Origin: an uncultured delta proteobacterium | Lineage (GTDB): Bacteria; Desulfobacterota; Desulfobacteria; Desulfobacterales; JAFDCJ01 | DNA: 64,000 nt | Direction: 5' to 3' | NCBI GenBank assembly: GCA_963769935.1 | Contig: CAVYNY010000013.1 | Span: forward strand, 585,822 to 649,821 | Shown here: one piece after another, positions 42,322 to 51,121 of the stretch | Position numbering within the stretch: the stretch's first letter is position 1 | How the letters are laid out: each line of letters opens with the position of its first letter | The notes under the pieces: generated by a model | Seen by the model: only the letters and a program-made list of their open reading frames with translations | Databases searched by the model: none | Told to the model about the DNA's origin: nothing | Made by a program: the position numbers and the translations under genes

Positions 42322-42525
42322 ATGGCAAAAGAAACCTTGTCAATTCCAAATATTTCCTGCGGCCATTGTGTCATGGCCATCAAAAATGAATTGAAGGAAA
42401 TGAAAGGTGTTAAATCGGTGGAAGGCAGCAGCGAGTCCAAGACCGTTGACATCGAATGGGATGCGCCGGCCACCCTGGAAAAGATCAAATCAACGCTGAA
42501 AGAAATCAATTACCCGCCGGCCTAG
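42322..42525 (+). CDS. copZ: copper chaperone (HMA domain)
   Basis: ISCGHC motif; directly upstream of CopA. Confidence 0.88.
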   Translation: MAKETLSIPNISCGHCVMAIKNELKEMKGVKSVEGSSESKTVDIEWDAPATLEKIKSTLKEINYPPA

Positions 42526-42577
42526 CCGGCCTAGTTCCGAACTTTGAGAAATCGTACGATTTCAGCTGATTTTAACG

Positions 42578-45043
42578 ATGGCAGAGCAAAAATTTACATT
42601 GCCGATAACCGGCATGACCTGCGCCAATTGCGCCGCCAACATAGAACGGGCGGTCAAGAAACTTGATGGCGTGGCGGATGCCAGCGTCAATTTCGCCGCC
42701 GAAAATGCAGCGGTCTCCCTTGACCCGCACGAGGTGCAGCTGCAGGACGTGGTGGAAAAAATCACTAAATCCGGTTACGGGGTCACGACCGCCAAAATCG
42801 AAATGCCGGTCACCGGTATGACCTGCGCCAATTGCGCCGCCAATATCGAACGGACCTTGAACAAGAAAGTCTCCGGGGTGCTGAACGCCGCGGTGAACTT
42901 TGCCTCGGAGCGGGTGTTGGTGGAGTATATCCCCGGTATCGTCGATGTCGAAGACATCGTCGGCGCCATTGAAAAAGCCGGTTACGGTGCCATTCCCCCC
43001 GAGGAAGGCCAGGACGCAGAAGACGTCGAACAAAAGGCGCGTGCGGCCGAAATCAAAAACCAAACCCGCAAGTTCGCGGTGGGGGTTTTGTTTGCCCTGC
43101 CGCTTTTTGTTTTCAGCATGGGCCGTGATTTCGGTCTCATCGGGCCCTGGAGCCATGCCGCCTGGGTCAACTGGTTTTTCTGGGCCTTGGCCACACCGGT
43201 CCAATTTTACACCGGTTGGGACTACTATGAGGGTGGTCTGAAAAGTCTTAAAAGCAAAAGTGCCAATATGGATGTGCTGGTGGCCATGGGGTCGTCGGTG
43301 GCCTATTTTTATTCTGTGGCTGTTTTGCTCTTGCCTTTCCTGGGCGACCAACAAGTCTTGGGCGACCACGTTTATTTTGAAACTTCGGCGGTCATCATCA
43401 CCCTGATCAAACTGGGCAAGATGCTCGAATCCCGCACCAAAGGCCGCACGGGCGGCGCCATCCGCAAGCTGATCGGTTTGCGACCCAAAACGGCTACTAT
43501 CCTGCAAGACAACAGCGAAATAGAAATTCCGCTTACCCGGGTCAAGGTCGGTGACACGGTGATCGTACGCCCGGGTGAACGGATACCGGTGGACGGCATC
43601 GTGCTCGACGGCCGGTCGGCCGTCGATGAATCCATGCTCAGCGGGGAGCCGCTGCCGGTGGATAAACAGACCGGGGATATGGTGGTCGGCGGTACGATCA
43701 ACGGCCAGGGTCTTTTGCGATTCAGTGCGACCCGGGTCGGCAAGGAAACCGCCCTGGCCCAGATTATCAAACTGGTTCAGGAAGCGCAGGGCAGCAAAGC
43801 GCCCATCCAGGCGCTGGCCGATAAAGTTGCGGCCGTATTTGTGCCGGGCATCATCGCCATTGCATTTGCGGTCTTTATTCTATGGTGGACCCTCACCGGT
43901 GATTTTGTTCCCGCCATGATCCGGCTGGTGGCGGTTCTGGTCATCGCCTGTCCCTGTGCCCTGGGGCTGGCCACCCCGACGGCCATTATGGCCGGCACCG
44001 GCAAGGGAGCTGAAAAAGGCATCCTGTTTAAAAGCAGCCAAGCCCTGGAAACTGCGACCAAACTCAATACGATTGTGCTGGATAAAACCGGCACCATCAC
44101 CATGGGCAAACCAATGGTGGTGGACGTCATACCTGTCAAACCCCAGTGCGAAACCGCAGAGGCGCTTTTGAGATTGGCGGCTTCGGTTGAAAAAGGCTCC
44201 GAGCATCCGCTGGGCAAGGCCATTGTAAACGAGGCCAAAACCCGCAAGCTCGATCTTCTGGAAATACGGGATTTCACGGCGGCCGGCGGCTCCGGTGTCC
44301 AGGCCGGCGTGGCGGGCAAGACGGTGATGGTCGGAAAGCCGAAATGGTTTCAGGAATTGGGCACCGATCTCAGCACCGCCGCAGAACAGATCGAAACCCT
44401 CCAATCGGAGGGCAAAACCGTGATGGTGGTAGTAAAAGAAGATGCGCTGTACGGCCTGATATCCGTGTCCGACACGCTGAAACCGGAATCCAGGGACGCC
44501 ATCCGGCAGCTCCACAAACAGCATCTTAAAGTTGTCATGCTGACCGGCGACAATCAGCAAACCGCTCAGAGCATCGCCTCCCAGGTCAATATTGATGAAG
44601 TTCTGGCTGAAGTGCGCCCGGAAGAAAAATCATCCAAAGTCAAAGAGCTGCAGCAAAATGGAGAGTTGGTCGGCATGGTCGGCGACGGCATCAATGATGC
44701 CCCGGCTCTGGCCCAGGCCGATGTAGGGCTGGCCATAGGTACCGGCACCGATGTGGCTATCGAAACCGCCGGCGTCATTCTTGCCAGCGGCAGCTTGATC
44801 GGGGTGCCCCGCGCCATCCAGCTCAGCCGCGCTACCATGCGGACGATCAAACAGAATCTTTTCTGGGCCTTTGGCTACAATGTCATTCTGATTCCGATTG
44901 CCGCCGGAATCCTTTACCCCTTTGAATCCCTGCCGATTATGCTGCGGCAGCTTCATCCCATCCTGGCCGCCCTGGCCATGGCCTTCAGCAGTATTTCCGT
45001 TGTGAGCAACAGCCTGCGACTGTACAGAACCAAGATCAAGTAG
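42578..45043 (+). CDS. copA: copper-translocating P1B-type ATPase
   Basis: Two GMTCANC domains, [25 protein letters not shown]...AMAFSS. Confidence 0.96.
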
Positions 45044-45123: not shown

Positions 45124-45699
45124 TTGGGTTTTTGTGATAAAAATGTCACGCTCGCGCCCTCCCTGGAATACTGGCGGGATTTCGCAGAACTGTTTACCCG
45201 GGCATTAAGCCGGACGCCTGAACTTGAGCTCTTGCGACATAAAGCGCACATCGCCGTTGACAAACATCAGCTCGCCCATTTTGCAAACTGTGCCCCGTTA
45301 ATGCCGGGATCTGAATATATCAGCACAGAACTGTTAAAAGCGGTTTGGTCAAAATTAAATGCGGCATTTTCCCAAGCAATAAAAACCTATAACGGTACCG
45401 TTGCAGAATTTATCCGGACCTATAGTCCGGAAGTACATCTGGTGGCCCGGGTATTTTTTCATCTGGCTGAAATTAAAGATGAAAACTATCCCTTTGCGTT
45501 TCTGGCCACCTATTCCACCCGATTGAACCAACAGGGAAAATCAAAACACCTGCCCCTCAAATACGCCTTAAGAGAATATGAATCCGACAGGGACAAATTG
45601 CTGGAAAGGAACCTAAATAAAGAACGAATCAATTTTAGATTGATGAGCCGCCGGAAAAGTATCCGGAAGGGGATGAATATTAATGCACCTTTTGTGTAA
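45124..45699 (+). pseudogene. N-terminal fragment of an SNF2-type helicase
   Basis: FFHLAE...PFAFLATYST...KHLPLKYALREY resembles, from recall, SNF2 N-termini; no helicase core and no clear start. Confidence 0.6.
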
Positions 45700-45958
45700 C
45701 CTTTAAATACCTATCGGCTCTCTACAGGCAATTCTCGGCGCGTCTTTTTAAATATTGCGAAAATTTCTAACTTATCAGTAAGTTAAATGAGGCAATCGAT
45801 TTTCATACGATCAATATTTTTCGCCTCAATTCATAATCTTTTTAAATCTGTGCCATATTGGATTTGTCATGGCATTTTTGTTTGTCAATCTGTGTTGTCC
45901 GGCCTCTAAAAAAAAGTGGACAACGGCTCGATTAATGCGTAAATAAAGGAAAAAGCCA

Positions 45959-46117
45959 ATGAAAGAAATTATTATCATGATGGCAATAGCGGGCATCTGG
46001 TTTTTGCTCCAGGCTTACATATTGCCGAAACTCGGAGTATCCACCTGACTGAAAGAATCTTGTCAGGTGACAAGCAAAAATGACCACCGCAAAGAATCCG
46101 AATCACGGGATAGTTAA
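45959..46117 (+). CDS. putative 52-aa membrane selenoprotein (Sec30)
   Basis: RBS AAGGA; MKEIIIMMAIAGIWFLLQAYILPKLGVST-U-LKESCQVTSKNDHRKESESRDS; in-frame TGA at 46046-46048 followed by a SECIS-like hairpin. Confidence 0.75.
46059..46074 (+). promoter_or_regulatory. bacterial SECIS-like hairpin
   Basis: CTTGTC-AGGT-GACAAG, 10 nt after the UGA; AGGU loop as in the E. coli fdhF SECIS. Confidence 0.72.
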
Positions 46118-46700
46118 AGATAATGATTTTGGTCTGATCCAGGCCATAAACTCCGGCCAGGTTGATAAGTTTAATGAACTCGTTAAGCGGTATGAACAGA
46201 GGCTTTACAACTTCAGCTTGCGGATGTGCGGCGATCACAGCGATGCCGAGGACATGGTCCAGGATACATTTCTAAATGTCTTCAAATACTTAAAAGATTT
46301 CCGCTATGAAACTAAATTTAAAAACTGGCTCTACAAAGTCGCGGCCAGCACCTGCATTAAAAAAAGGCGCAGATCTAAATTCGCACCGGAAAAGGAACTG
46401 TCTTTAGATGAATTCCGGCCGGGTGAAAAAGTCGAAGCTGTCGAAAAGGTGCCGGAGTGGGCGTTAATGCCTCTGGATAAGCTGCTCAATGAAGAGCTTT
46501 CCAGTGTCGTCCACCGGTCAATTTTATCCGTTCCTAAAAAATATCGTATGGTGATCGTTTTGCGGGATATTGAAGGCTTCAGCACGGCCGAAACCGCTCA
46601 AATTCTTAATCTGTCACCGGCGAATGTAAAAGTGAGGCTCCACCGGGCACGGCTTTATTTAAGGGATAAACTGAAAGGATATTTCGAAAATGAGCAATGA
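46080..46700 (+). CDS. ECF RNA polymerase sigma factor
   Basis: DAEDMVQDTFL, FKNWLYKVA, LRDIEGFS..E.A..L.LS..NVKVRLHRAR. Confidence 0.94.
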   Translation: MTTAKNPNHGIVKDNDFGLIQAINSGQVDKFNELVKRYEQRLYNFSLRMCGDHSDAEDMVQDTFLNVFKYLKDFRYETKFKNWLYKVAASTCIKKRRRSKFAPEKELSLDEFRPGEKVEAVEKVPEWALMPLDKLLNEELSSVVHRSILSVPKKYRMVIVLRDIEGFSTAETAQILNLSPANVKVRLHRARLYLRDKLKGYFENEQ

Positions 46701-46953
46701 CGACCATGATCGTAAACATTGCCTGGCGATGTTTGAAAAACTCTCTGAATACATCGACGGCGAACTGGATCATGCCACCTGTGAAAAAATTAAAAAACAC
46801 GCTGAGGAATGTGTCGCCTGCTTTTCCTGCCTTGAAACTCTGAAAAGAACCGTAGCCCTGTGCAAAAATGTCGCTGAAAAACCGATCCCGCTGGAACTAT
46901 CCAGAAAGCTGCAAGCAATAATCCAGCGTATGCCGAAGGCTACCACGTTGTAG
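46690..46953 (+). CDS. soluble zinc-binding anti-sigma factor (zf-HC2/ZAS)
   Basis: C...LSEYIDGEL...HAEECVAC motif; overlaps the sigma stop. Confidence 0.9.
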   Translation: MSNDDHDRKHCLAMFEKLSEYIDGELDHATCEKIKKHAEECVACFSCLETLKRTVALCKNVAEKPIPLELSRKLQAIIQRMPKATTL

Positions 46954-47493
46954 GCGCTTAGAAGCTCCCATCTAACAACAGGTTGTATAATACGACTTGA
47001 GGTGTAACGTAACCCCAGTCGCCGACCGCAGAGCGCCAAGTTTGGTCGGGTTGGAAGCGATGCGAAGATACCAATGGCCTTTATGGAGTTTTAAACGAGC
47101 CTTCCGTTTGCATGAGTCACAGCCAGCAAGATATAAATTCCAAATTACAAGCACCAAATAACAAATAAATCCCAAATTACAATAATCAATGACCAAAACC
47201 CGCCAAACCAAGAAAATTTAGCTCTGGTTTTTTCGTATTTTACAACTTTCGCGCTTTCGTGATAGTAGATCGCCCATTTATCGAATTCGATCACCAAAAC
47301 AGATTGAGTCCGGTTTGGAATTTTGTATTTTGGTCATTGGAATTTATTTGTGATTTGGAATTTGTGATTTTGATTTGCGCCAGCACCAGGGAGAGATCTG
47401 TTTTATATTTTCTGCCTCCTGAGATTTGACATGACATCCGCTTGGTTTTTCTAGAGTTTCATCTCAGGTGTCATCACCGGCGCCGTTTCAAAC

Positions 47494-48255
47494 TCACCCG
47501 TGCAGCTCAACCGAAATTTTCCCCGCCTCCTCCCTGGTCAGTGACAGATGATACCCCCGCACTTTCACGTCAACCTTGTCATTGCAAGGCGCCAGGGACT
47601 CGACTTCGATAATACTCCCGGATGAAACGCCCATATCGTTTAATTGCTTACCGATTGCGCTGCGGCCGGTGATCTTGATGATCTTTCCCCTTTGCCCGGG
47701 ATCCATGTCGTTTAAGGACACCGCCGCTTGCGATCCATTGCGCATATGTTGTTCTCTCTTTTTCAAATCTGCCAGGCAGGTAGAAATGTAGTTTGTACAT
47801 TTAAGCGCGGTATCGCCATTTTCGCAATGGCGCCGAAACCCTTTCAACCATTCTTGGCCGCCCCGAGGACAGATTTCCATGAACTCCACGAAGTTTATAA
47901 GCCGGTTGAGTATCTTTTCAGATATGGCATGTTCAATTTTACAAGAAGCCTCTTCGGCCTCCGCGTCATCCAGCAGGAGGATTTTGACGAAGAAGTCCTT
48001 GAGCGTCTCGTGCCGCCGGACAACGTCAACCGCCACCGCCTGTCCCTCGGCGGTAAGGCTAATGATGTCGTAGGGGGCATAGTTCACATAACCCTTTTCC
48101 GAAAGGGTGCGCAGCGCACCTGTTACCGACGACTTGTTGACATTCAGCCGTTCGGCAATGTCCTTGGCCCGGGCGGCCTTCTTTTCAGCGGAGATGTGAA
48201 ATATTGCCTCCAGATAGTCTTCCATGTTCGAACTGAGTGCTTCCCTGGCTGCCAT
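47494..48255 (-). CDS. DtxR/MntR family metal-dependent repressor with C-terminal FeoA domain
   Basis: MEDYLEAI, VVRRHE, ACKIEH; SH3-like FeoA domain. Confidence 0.93.
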   Translation of the reverse strand: MAAREALSSNMEDYLEAIFHISAEKKAARAKDIAERLNVNKSSVTGALRTLSEKGYVNYAPYDIISLTAEGQAVAVDVVRRHETLKDFFVKILLLDDAEAEEASCKIEHAISEKILNRLINFVEFMEICPRGGQEWLKGFRRHCENGDTALKCTNYISTCLADLKKREQHMRNGSQAAVSLNDMDPGQRGKIIKITGRSAIGKQLNDMGVSSGSIIEVESLAPCNDKVDVKVRGYHLSLTREEAGKISVELHG

Positions 48256-48359
48256 ACGATTAACCCTTTAATTGATTGATCATTGTACAAATTAGCCGCT
48301 TCGCCCCAATTGTGGAATGAGGCAGAAACGCATGTCTCAAAAACGACCCAATGCTCACA

Positions 48360-48554
48360 TTAAGATGCAGGCTTTTCGAAATGTTTAATATGCTTTTGTC
48401 TCTCTTGCGGAAATTCACAAGCGGAAGCATCTACCGGACAAGAAGTGCAGCCGCAACCGCACTGATTGCCTTTTTTGTATTTTTTATAGTAGCTGCGCCC
48501 TAAAAAAGCAGCCGCCATACCGACAATGATTACCACAACTATAGTTTCCATCAT
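48360..48554 (-). CDS. FeoB-associated Cys-rich membrane protein
   Basis: TM helix followed by CGCGCTSC; downstream of feoB. Confidence 0.85.
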   Translation of the reverse strand: MMETIVVVIIVGMAAAFLGRSYYKKYKKGNQCGCGCTSCPVDASACEFPQERQKHIKHFEKPAS

Positions 48555-48665
48555 TATTTCAACATCCTTGGAGTTTTTAAATCAGCCTGAAATTGAATTT
48601 CTAATCCTGACAAAAACACAATTCCTAAACCAATCCAGCACGATAACTCAACAAACGCTATAAAC

Positions 48666-50891
48666 TCAATTAACACCGACGCCCAGAACCGAACCAACCT
48701 GATAAATCGAAACTGCCAGAACAAAAGCCAGCAGCGTGTTAAAAACAATTGCAAAAGCCCCCCATTTCCAGGACCCGGACTCCCTTGAAATACAAACCAC
48801 CGACACGAAACAAGGGGAATAGAACATGGTAAATACAATTAAACTCAAAGCCACCAGCGGCGACCAGGCTGGATCTTTAGCCAGCGCCGCGGACAGGACC
48901 CCGCTTTCCTGTGGATCAACTTCCCCCATGGAATAGGCCGTGCCCAGGGTGGAGACCACCACTTCCTTGGCGGCGAATCCGCCCACCAGGGCGATATTGG
49001 TGCGCCAGTCGAATCCGGCCCAGCGGGAAACGTATTCCAGCGCTCTTCCAATGCGGCCGGCTATCGAATATCTCAAAGCGGTTTCGGCTTCCCGGTATTT
49101 AATACCGTTCAGCTGCCTTTTTAAAGTTACCGCTGCCCCGGATAGCTCGGTTGCGGCCCCGTTGTTTTCCAGCTCACGGACGGTTGCAGCCGGTGCGGTA
49201 TTCAGCAGGGCCTGACGCTGGGTCTCGAACTGCTGTACTTTGGAATCCGGCAGTCCGGGAAAGGTCATCATGGCCCACAAAATGATCGAAAATCCCAATA
49301 TGACCGTGCCGGCTTTTCTGACATATTGCCGGGTCCGCTCCCAGGTATGGATCGCCAACCCCTTGAATGTCGGCATTCGGTAGGGCGGCAGTTCCATCAC
49401 AAAAGGGGTGGCCGCACCTTTTATCACCGTAACCCGCAGCAGTTTGGCCACCAGCAGGGCGCCGGCCCATGCGCCCAGGGTAATCACAAACATGATCAGC
49501 GCCTCATGCCTGGCAAAAAATGCGGCGATCAAAAGGGCAAATACCGGCAATTTGGCCCCGCAATTCATAAACGGTACGGTGAGCAGGGTCGCCAGCCGCT
49601 CCCGCGGTGATTTTAAGGTCCGGGTGGCCATAACACCGGGTACGGCACATCCCCCGGCAATGCCCCCGGACACGATAAAGGCCATCACCGAGCTGCCGTG
49701 CAGTCCAAATATTCGAAACACTCTGTCCAACATAAACGCCACCCGGGCCAGGTAGCCGGAATCCTCCAAAAAGGCAATGCCGAAGAACATAAACATAATC
49801 AGCGGAACAAAACCCAGAACCCCGCCCACGCCGTCGATAATGCCCGACACAATCAGAGACTTGAGAAGGCCGTCCGGTAAAATTGCGCCGACCCCGGCCC
49901 CGATCCAGCCGAAAATGGTCTCCAGCCATCCCACCGGCACTGCGCTGTAAGTGAAAACCACCTGATAGAGGCCGGCAATAATAGCCAGCATAATAAGGGG
50001 GCCGAGAAACCGGTTGGTTAAAACTTTGTCGATCCGATCCGAGCTGTATAAGCGGTTCGGATCATATTTTTGATAGATGACGCCCTGCTTCAGGATGGAC
50101 TTGATGTAGCCGTAGCGCTGGTCGGCAATCATGGCCTCCGGGTAAGTATCCAGCGTCTCCAGCAGGTGATGAGACACTTTTTTTACCGTTGCCTGCAGTC
50201 TGGCAGCCAATTCCGGATTTGCCGACCGGCCCTTCTCCAGGATCTGCTCATCATTTTCCATGTATTTTAACGCGATCCAGCGTACCGGATAGGTGGCGGT
50301 AAGAAAGTTTTCGGCTTCGATCTCCTTTTCCATTTCGATCAGAGCGCGGTCCACGTCGTCGCCATAGGAAATCTTGAGAGGAACAAATTCCTTATTTTCC
50401 TGCACGATCCGGGCGGCGCTCTCCATCAATTCCTTTTTCCCCTGGCCGGAGCGCGCGATGGTAGGCACTACCGGCACGCCTAAAAGAGTGGATAATTTGC
50501 GGGCATTGATTTCGATACCCCGCTTGTGGGCCACATCGATCATGTTCAGGGCGATGCACACCGCAACGCCCATTTCAAGGAACTGCACGGCCAGGTAAAG
50601 ATTGCGCTCCAGATTGGACGCATCCACGATGTTGATGACGACTTCCGGTTTCCGGTTGACCAGAAAATCCCTGGCAACCACTTCCTCCAGGGAATAAGCC
50701 GTAAGCGAGTAGGTACCGGGCAGATCAACAATGTGCAGCTGAAAATCCTTATTCGTGTACAGGCCTTCTTTTTTCTCGACCGTCACCCCCGGATAGTTGC
50801 CGACATGCTGCCGGGCACCGGTCAATTCATTGAAAAGGGTGGTTTTGCCGGAGTTCGGATTACCGGCCAGAGCAACCGTTGCCTGCATCAT
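48666..50891 (-). CDS. feoB: ferrous iron transport protein B
   Basis: GNPNSGKT, NYPGVTVE, DLPGTYSL, NMID, LEDSGYLAR, PFVMELP. Confidence 0.97.
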   Translation of the reverse strand: MMQATVALAGNPNSGKTTLFNELTGARQHVGNYPGVTVEKKEGLYTNKDFQLHIVDLPGTYSLTAYSLEEVVARDFLVNRKPEVVINIVDASNLERNLYLAVQFLEMGVAVCIALNMIDVAHKRGIEINARKLSTLLGVPVVPTIARSGQGKKELMESAARIVQENKEFVPLKISYGDDVDRALIEMEKEIEAENFLTATYPVRWIALKYMENDEQILEKGRSANPELAARLQATVKKVSHHLLETLDTYPEAMIADQRYGYIKSILKQGVIYQKYDPNRLYSSDRIDKVLTNRFLGPLIMLAIIAGLYQVVFTYSAVPVGWLETIFGWIGAGVGAILPDGLLKSLIVSGIIDGVGGVLGFVPLIMFMFFGIAFLEDSGYLARVAFMLDRVFRIFGLHGSSVMAFIVSGGIAGGCAVPGVMATRTLKSPRERLATLLTVPFMNCGAKLPVFALLIAAFFARHEALIMFVITLGAWAGALLVAKLLRVTVIKGAATPFVMELPPYRMPTFKGLAIHTWERTRQYVRKAGTVILGFSIILWAMMTFPGLPDSKVQQFETQRQALLNTAPAATVRELENNGAATELSGAAVTLKRQLNGIKYREAETALRYSIAGRIGRALEYVSRWAGFDWRTNIALVGGFAAKEVVVSTLGTAYSMGEVDPQESGVLSAALAKDPAWSPLVALSLIVFTMFYSPCFVSVVCISRESGSWKWGAFAIVFNTLLAFVLAVSIYQVGSVLGVGVN

Positions 50892-51121
50892 TCGTCGACC
50901 TCCACTTCAATAAAATCGGCTTCATTATTTCTCAAAGTCAGGGTGGCCCCCCGAACTCTCAATGCCACCGGGTCGTAGAGCGGAGCCCGGCCCCGGATCC
51001 TGATTTCCGTTCCCGGAACCAGCCCCATGTCCCGGAGACGCCGGCCCAGGTCGCCGCCCACTTTTACCGCAGCAATCGTGCCGGCTTGATCATCGCTCAT
51101 ATTGCGCAGGTTTATCCGCAT
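50888..51121 (-). CDS. feoA: ferrous iron transport protein A
   Basis: RRLRDMGLVPG...APLYDPV...LTLR. Confidence 0.95.
   Translation of the reverse strand: MRINLRNMSDDQAGTIAAVKVGGDLGRRLRDMGLVPGTEIRIRGRAPLYDPVALRVRGATLTLRNNEADFIEVEVDE

Follow-up and report, generated by a model that had tools for sequence, protein, structure and literature searches.

Does a short reading frame that crosses an in-frame UGA and runs on into the start of an ECF sigma factor gene encode a selenoprotein, and is translation of the sigma factor tied to decoding of that UGA? The locus lies within the window – the whole 64,000-nucleotide stretch of DNA that was analysed, from an uncultured delta proteobacterium – and its features are collected in Table 1. 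Our overall reading, to which we give a probability of about 0.55, is that a membrane selenopeptide is the first gene of a self-activated ECF sigma/zinc anti-sigma (ZAS) operon in which sigma translation would be coupled to read-through.

Table 1. Features of the predicted selenopeptide, sigma and anti-sigma locus, in window coordinates.
Feature	Position	Strand	Remarks
Predicted ECF-type promoter	45908..45941	+	A-tract 45908-15, TGGACA 45917-22, CGTA 45938-41; conserved upstream only in sigma-linked loci
SD of peptide gene, AAGGA	45946..45950	+	-5.7 kcal/mol versus anti-SD
Predicted micro-selenoprotein gene, 52 aa	45959..46117	+	helix 2-24, LPxxGxxT-U30-x4-C35, charged unstructured tail
In-frame UGA, predicted Sec30	46046..46048	+	TGA in 135/135 + 29/29 Sec-type loci; Cys in homologues
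SECIS-type hairpin CTTGTC-AGGT-GACAAG	46059..46074	+	10 nt after UGA; loop AGGT 16 nt after UGA
ECF sigma factor, 206 aa	46080..46700	+	ATG in frame +1 within peptide tail; Sigma70_r2, r4_2, TIGR02937
Soluble zinc-binding anti-sigma (ZAS), 87 aa	46690..46953	+	zf-HC2; C11...H37-x3-C41-x2-C44-x2-C47

An earlier note on this DNA had described an unannotated ORF with a ribosome-binding site, a U-x4-C motif and a TAA end at 46115-46117, a perfect hairpin ten nucleotides past the UGA, a 38-nt overlap of the read-through tail with the sigma ATG, and a Cys-rich soluble ZAS 3′ of sigma; every one of these sequence details is present. With TGA read as U, the frame that opens at ATG 45959 begins MKEIIIMMAIAGIWFLLQAYILPKLGVSTULKESC. 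The description as unannotated holds for the full 52-aa form, which is uncalled, but not for a 29-aa form truncated at the UGA, which is already in public protein sets, many of its entries being named 'hypothetical protein'. Over its first 29 residues the peptide shares 86% identity with the nearest named homologue, a protein of the Olavius Delta 1 symbiont. The peptide-sigma locus is covered by metatranscriptome contigs from close relatives, one of them spanning 45965-46934; these contigs come from one study, as contigs only and with no silent-stretch control, and are not taken as evidence of transcription.

Consistent with the UGA being decoded as selenocysteine, every one of the 164 Sec-type loci fetched had TGA at this position, and none had TAA or TAG. 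For the 135 distinct phylum loci among them, the procedure that picked the codon favoured TGA or TGY, and the search program's own listing of stops gave the same result; their final stops were TGA in 58, TAA in 56 and TAG in 21. In a second phylum (that of genome G461, likely Myxococcota), 29 of 30 fetched loci had TGA and one had TGC. Residue 30 aligns with Cys in homologues, Cys forms being found at seven genome loci and at 21 of 22 metagenome loci by scans that were both able to detect Cys forms only; the seven genome loci are from Myxococcales, Bacteroidota, Chloroflexota, Cyanobacteriota and deltaproteobacterial records. No selB turned up in five of the seven Cys-form genomes, for which completeness was not given. 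Two Cys-codon forms (L040 and L042) retain a G-loop hairpin, which suggests a recent Sec-to-Cys change.

Beyond the UGA, a Cys follows in the 135 phylum loci at +5 (119 loci), +6 (11) or +7 (1), encoded by TGT in 76 and TGC in 55; four loci lack an early Cys, three of them being Cys-free altogether, and L235 is also without any downstream Cys. Eleven loci of the second phylum lack an early Cys, and ten of these have a later one, as the last residue in six, which argues that the tail is translated and that a second thiol is needed. Single-base codon differences were synonymous in 50% of cases at +1 to +5 versus 24% at +10 to +16. None of 45 convergent neighbour genes ends within the read-through tail. 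Of 39 co-directional neighbours, 12 begin between -1 and +13 nt relative to the read-through stop; three co-directional neighbours had over-extended starts and were among the rows dropped. The UGA/Cys alternation and the conserved downstream Cys that the earlier note had proposed to look for are thus both found, and homologues stopping at this position with UAA or UAG, which it held would speak against selenocysteine, did not occur among the Sec-type loci. Judged from these comparisons, the 52-codon gene very probably encodes a real selenoprotein. That the UGA is instead a true stop, leaving a 29-aa peptide, or is read as Trp would agree with the 29-aa forms that gene callers produce and with the translation of some short contigs with W, but is made highly improbable by the lack of TAA and TAG at the codon, its alignment with Cys, the conservation of the downstream Cys in both of its codons, and the fact that the sigma gene itself terminates in TGA.

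We found a hairpin of published SECIS geometry (as given in section 5 of PMC13188914) in 127 of the 135 loci versus 21% of dinucleotide shuffles, with AGGT, GGA and AGTT as the dominant loops. The earlier note had suggested looking for covarying stems, and these are evident in the 16-nt hairpin class: among its 18 sequences 91% of cells pair and 14 cells are compensatory, with both sides changed – values that none of 500 shuffles reached and that are inflated by kinship. The window hairpin alone has a free energy of -5.6 kcal/mol, against a SECIS threshold of <= -7.5 kcal/mol, and a pairing probability of 0.43; it has to compete with alternative folds, one of which is of lower energy within the 48 nt that follow the UGA, and many homologues have stronger hairpins. 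The loops of the host genome's own FdhA and SelD genes lie at 18-23 nt. Overall, the reading of this locus as a selenopeptide with a SECIS is strongly supported by comparison across the family.

The earlier note had asked for selABCD to be confirmed. In the host genome selB and tRNA-Sec are present, as are two selD genes, each containing TGA, and selA; the last (G000:C22:678107-679262, minus strand) is broken across two frames by what looks like a one-base shift. This shift is likely an assembly error, because the rest of the Sec machinery and the Sec genes look intact. A tRNA-Pyl was also called, beside tRNA-Sec (G000:C11:285724-285797), and the genome may use both expanded codes. selA was detected in 379 of 401 phylum genomes, so that co-occurrence of the peptide with selA has no power. 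Among the 22 selA-negative genomes, eight carry the peptide (two identified by their absence from a listing); selB is present in seven of these eight, and tRNA-Sec in all five tested.

Members of the peptide family were detected in 52 of 61 genomes (the host and 60 relatives; E<=1.2e-6), with exactly one TGA per match, and in 177 of 401 phylum genomes (44%); among the 181 phylum-wide matches, all 150 that were listed contain TGA. The second phylum gave matches in 41 of 201 genomes and a third phylum sample in one of 201, the seed genome itself. Querying the ESM Atlas with a Cys form gave a single lead, at 0.88 and so below 0.9: a hypothetical cluster of 56 aa that is commonest in Planctomycetota. 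Duplicate loci (L044, L073-75) and a likely false match (L194) were dropped, and L042, whose start is missing, was left out of the upstream tests.

AlphaFold predicts one helix, at residues 2-24, and an otherwise unstructured chain (pTM 0.40). P23, G26 and U/C30 are invariant across 74 members. The C side carries the larger positive charge in 126 of 141, which suggests that the U/C site faces the cytoplasm. The product is almost certainly a single-helix membrane selenoprotein of 52 residues with a U-x4-C motif. We infer a function in thiol-redox or soft-metal handling because thiol and metal genes recur among its neighbours (thioredoxin, AhpD/CMD, DsrE, CcdA, rhodanese, ArsR, MerR, CopA). A thioredoxin-peptide-CcdA/DsbD gene order is seen in Cys forms, and in 7 of 21 metagenome Cys loci a thioredoxin is listed upstream as well as a CcdA/DsbD protein downstream, all seven loci being from one lineage. 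The apparent redox context is modest, as neighbour genes are very mixed across the phylum.

This selenoprotein family is likely uncatalogued. The window peptide has no Pfam or NCBIfam match, and a comparison of 74 members with NCBIfam 20.0 matched no selenoprotein model and gave only weak matches to four unrelated models. Parts 1 and 2 of the three parts of Table 1 in a 119-family catalogue (PMC13188914) list no U-x4-C family, and the family is not described in the portions covered of the deep-Sep paper (PMC12013277), the Olavius paper (PMC1976440), bioRxiv 2022.07.06.499078, bioRxiv 2021.03.15.435355 or the BSepDB paper (PMC13326102). Literature searches for a UxxxxC selenoprotein, for a small transmembrane selenoprotein with coupling, and for selenocysteine with ECF, SECIS or anti-sigma gave nothing relevant; subscription papers, the BSepDB database and bioRxiv supplements could hold the family. 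It shares with catalogued bacterial selenoproteins an in-frame UGA, a G-containing apical loop 16-37 nt downstream, Sec/Cys pairs and a nearby Cys, and differs in that none in the covered part of that catalogue is listed with U-x4-C or described as a lone membrane helix, TsoB having UxxxxU (PMC13188914). Truncation to 29 aa appears to be why a selenoprotein present in 44% of sampled phylum genomes has been missed. With it the bacterial selenoproteome would gain a minimal, membrane-anchored type, and its annotation could be corrected at once. The eukaryotic selenoproteins SELENOK and SELENOS also cross the membrane once, their N side being short and their cytosolic tail unstructured, and offer an analogy only; their Sec lies near the C-terminus and their SECIS in the 3′ UTR, unlike those of the peptide described here.

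The gene pair downstream has the attributes of ECF sigma/ZAS pairs – a factor with sigma2 and sigma4 regions only and an adjacent HX3CX2C protein. Of 142 loci, 40 have an orthologous sigma after the peptide. The order supplies 38 of these from its 60 loci, every one of the 21 in the genus among them; the 75 other UGA loci supply two and the 7 Cys loci none. These linked loci are kin, 21 of the 40 being from one genus. No more than 9 of the 401 phylum genomes have a close sigma orthologue, which is linked to the peptide in five and unlinked in four; all nine genomes carry the peptide somewhere. The three-part module proposed by the earlier note is therefore real, but it is largely limited to one order and most family members are without the sigma. 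The ZAS motif residues C11, H37, C41, C44 and C47 are kept in all 38 homologues recovered from the 40 loci, and Hsp33 lies 3′ of the ZAS in four loci (three scanned).

Counted from the UGA, the sigma ATG lies at +34 to +43 and in frame +1 in 38 of 40 linked loci, and an ATG so placed occurs in 10 of 95 unlinked loci. In many families the sigma ATG keeps a distance of 5-14 nt from the stem before it, mostly lacking an SD of its own, and the codons that host it in the peptide frame are Asn, Asp, His or Tyr. In L148 the sigma ATG overlaps the read-through stop as ATGA, and in L019 sigma starts either within the tail, at an ATC, or 4 nt beyond the stop, at a GTG. The peptide's own SD is present in all 40. 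Within the window hairpin, CAGGTGA (46064-70) pairs with the anti-SD and is the best SD for the sigma ATG (-8.2 kcal/mol against the genome's 16S 3′ end); the earlier note had seen AGGTGA, in the loop and 3′ arm, as the only SD-like sequence for it. Among linked loci CAGGUGA is at a usual distance (9 nt from the ATG) in 24 of 40; 13 have no SD at a usual distance and three have an SD outside the hairpin. An AGTT loop replaces AGGUGA in 6 of the 40, and 20 of 95 unlinked loci contain AGGUGA too. An SD in the loop, as pointed out by the earlier note, is therefore not the conserved feature; what is conserved is that sigma starts inside the read-through tail or where it ends, near the SECIS and dependent on the tail.

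Upstream of the peptide we identified an ECF-like promoter motif, new here, that consists of an A-tract, TGGACA, 15 nt and CGTA (TGGAC-N16-CGTA). Scored with a matrix trained on linked loci, it lies no more than 150 nt upstream of the peptide in 29 of the 40 linked loci and in none of the 101 unlinked ones. A matrix trained on the genus only (score >=10.6) recovered it in 10 of 19 other linked loci, missing it in nine, and in no unlinked locus, neither among the 22 of the order nor among the 79 from elsewhere; the motif is also absent upstream of the four unlinked sigma orthologues. A sigma70 reading of the sites is disfavoured, the final T being present in only 6 of 31 and missing in 25. CGTA is a described ECF -10 element (PMC7826278 supplement) and ECF sigmas usually autoregulate (PMC7826278), and 'TGGAC' occurs 0 times in the portion of that supplement that was searched. 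The motif upstream of the peptide is the only strong site in the genome, and thus the peptide is the main visible target; the genome motif scan found no wider regulon, five of six extra matches in the genus lying inside long ORFs. On this evidence the promoter is probably used by this sigma.

These results suggest a mechanism in four steps. SelB would read the hairpin and insert Sec, a step strongly supported by comparison. The helix would be anchored N-out/C-in, with the U/C pair cycling as a selenenyl-sulfide or binding a soft metal. Stress would free sigma from the ZAS, and sigma would then transcribe peptide, sigma and ZAS from TGGAC-N16-CGTA, which would make the peptide an output of the response. 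In the least certain step, which we hold at somewhat under even odds, only ribosomes that read through would open the hairpin, finishing ~35-45 nt past the sigma ATG and so allowing sigma to start; selenium supply would then set the gain of the loop. If read-through does control sigma in this way, selenium supply would directly set a transcription regulator.

The chance that sigma translation is affected by selenium at all, in either direction, seems to us about even, positive coupling being the more likely of the two directions. The full version – Sec read-through licensing translation of the ECF sigma that transcribes the peptide, in a selenium-dependent feedback loop, with the same tiny gene perhaps serving as a portable selenium gate where other genes' starts overlap its read-through stop (L054, L055, L060) – is put forward tentatively. 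A serious possibility, also short of even odds, is plain operon compaction, in which the selenoprotein is real, but the sigma gene simply came to overlap a low-complexity tail that tolerates it, and its translation does not depend on selenium. This reading fits a tail that varies from 11 to 43 aa among family members (the shortest being 11 codons), a family in which most members lack the sigma, sigma orthologues that are unlinked in four of nine genomes, and a loop sequence accounted for by SECIS function plus CQV codons; it fits less well with an ATG that keeps frame +1 and its distance behind the stem in many families, or with the ATGA of L148, which overlaps the read-through stop and not the UGA.

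The sign of any coupling could also be reversed. CAGGUGA 9 nt from the ATG is a geometry in which SelB binding could repress rather than activate, and SelB-GTP-Sec-tRNA on the hairpin might block the sigma ribosome-binding site when selenium is plentiful, with starvation derepressing it. The strong SD shared by loop and 3′ arm in 24 of 40 loci and the E. coli selAB precedent (bioRxiv 10.64898/2026.03.03.709296) are in keeping with this, but the 13 linked loci with no SD at the usual distance, the six with an AGTT loop, and L148, which requires read-through to couple, make it unlikely. Direct oxidation or reduction of the anti-sigma by the peptide, acting as sensor input, is quite unlikely. The two proteins are co-encoded and both predicted to face the cytoplasm, and the peptide is present in nine of nine genomes with a close sigma orthologue, a co-occurrence that has a 44% base rate and involves kin; against the idea, the peptide is found in ~170 sampled genomes without this sigma, and two of the four RsrA redox determinants are missing from the window ZAS.

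Two known systems resemble parts of the locus. The earlier note knew of no system like this one; a partial regulatory precedent exists in the E. coli selAB leader, where SelB on a SECIS-like element beside the selA SD represses selAB (in the portion of bioRxiv 10.64898/2026.03.03.709296 covered). Both have a SelB-binding hairpin, predicted here, beside a ribosome-binding site; that of E. coli is an untranslated operator controlling the Sec machinery, whereas here it is predicted to act as the SECIS of an upstream ORF, and that ORF overlaps the gene of a transcription regulator. SigR/RsrA of Streptomyces (ECF12) likewise pairs an ECF sigma, itself also under a translational control layer (PMC5472188), with a small soluble ZAS. 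Redox-sensitive RsrA-type ZAS proteins have E39, E40, L45 and E46 around the HCC motif (PMC3177212). The window ZAS shares H37, C41 and C44 at the same positions and has E39 and E40, but it has F45 and S46 in place of L45 and E46, so that the RsrA redox-determinant set is incomplete, and it has an extra C47; its homologues have E/D at position 39 in 18 of 38 and at position 40 in 12 of 38, and L45 or E46 in none. The TIGR03988 score was 35.7 versus a cut-off of 62.5, and SigR/RsrA is without a selenopeptide. The SigR promoter is GGAAT/GTT, unlike TGGAC/CGTA here.

Several further observations concern the surroundings of the peptide gene. Just upstream of it in the window lie copZ-copA copper genes (42325-45043), and a heavy-metal ATPase flanks it in L026, L040, L056 and L145. 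A 191-aa ORF at 45124-45699 has no Pfam or NCBIfam match and no paralogue in the genome; it may resemble a truncated SNF2-helicase N-terminus. Downstream, 47126-47385 is an AT-rich genome-wide repeat (93 and 77 blastn matches for its two halves), and the minus strand of 47494-51121 carries feoA/feoB-like genes and a DtxR/MntR-like regulator, recognised by inspecting translations only. Many linked loci (L002, L008, L025, L046, L133, L148 and others) carry, upstream of the peptide, an HmcB/HybA-like 4Fe-4S gene and a membrane protein of 150-185 aa that matches no family. In L050-L060 and L072, all of one family, an unannotated 143-aa gene begins at or just after the read-through stop (at -1 nt in L054, L055 and L060); from this placement, these loci are a possible second case of read-through coupling.
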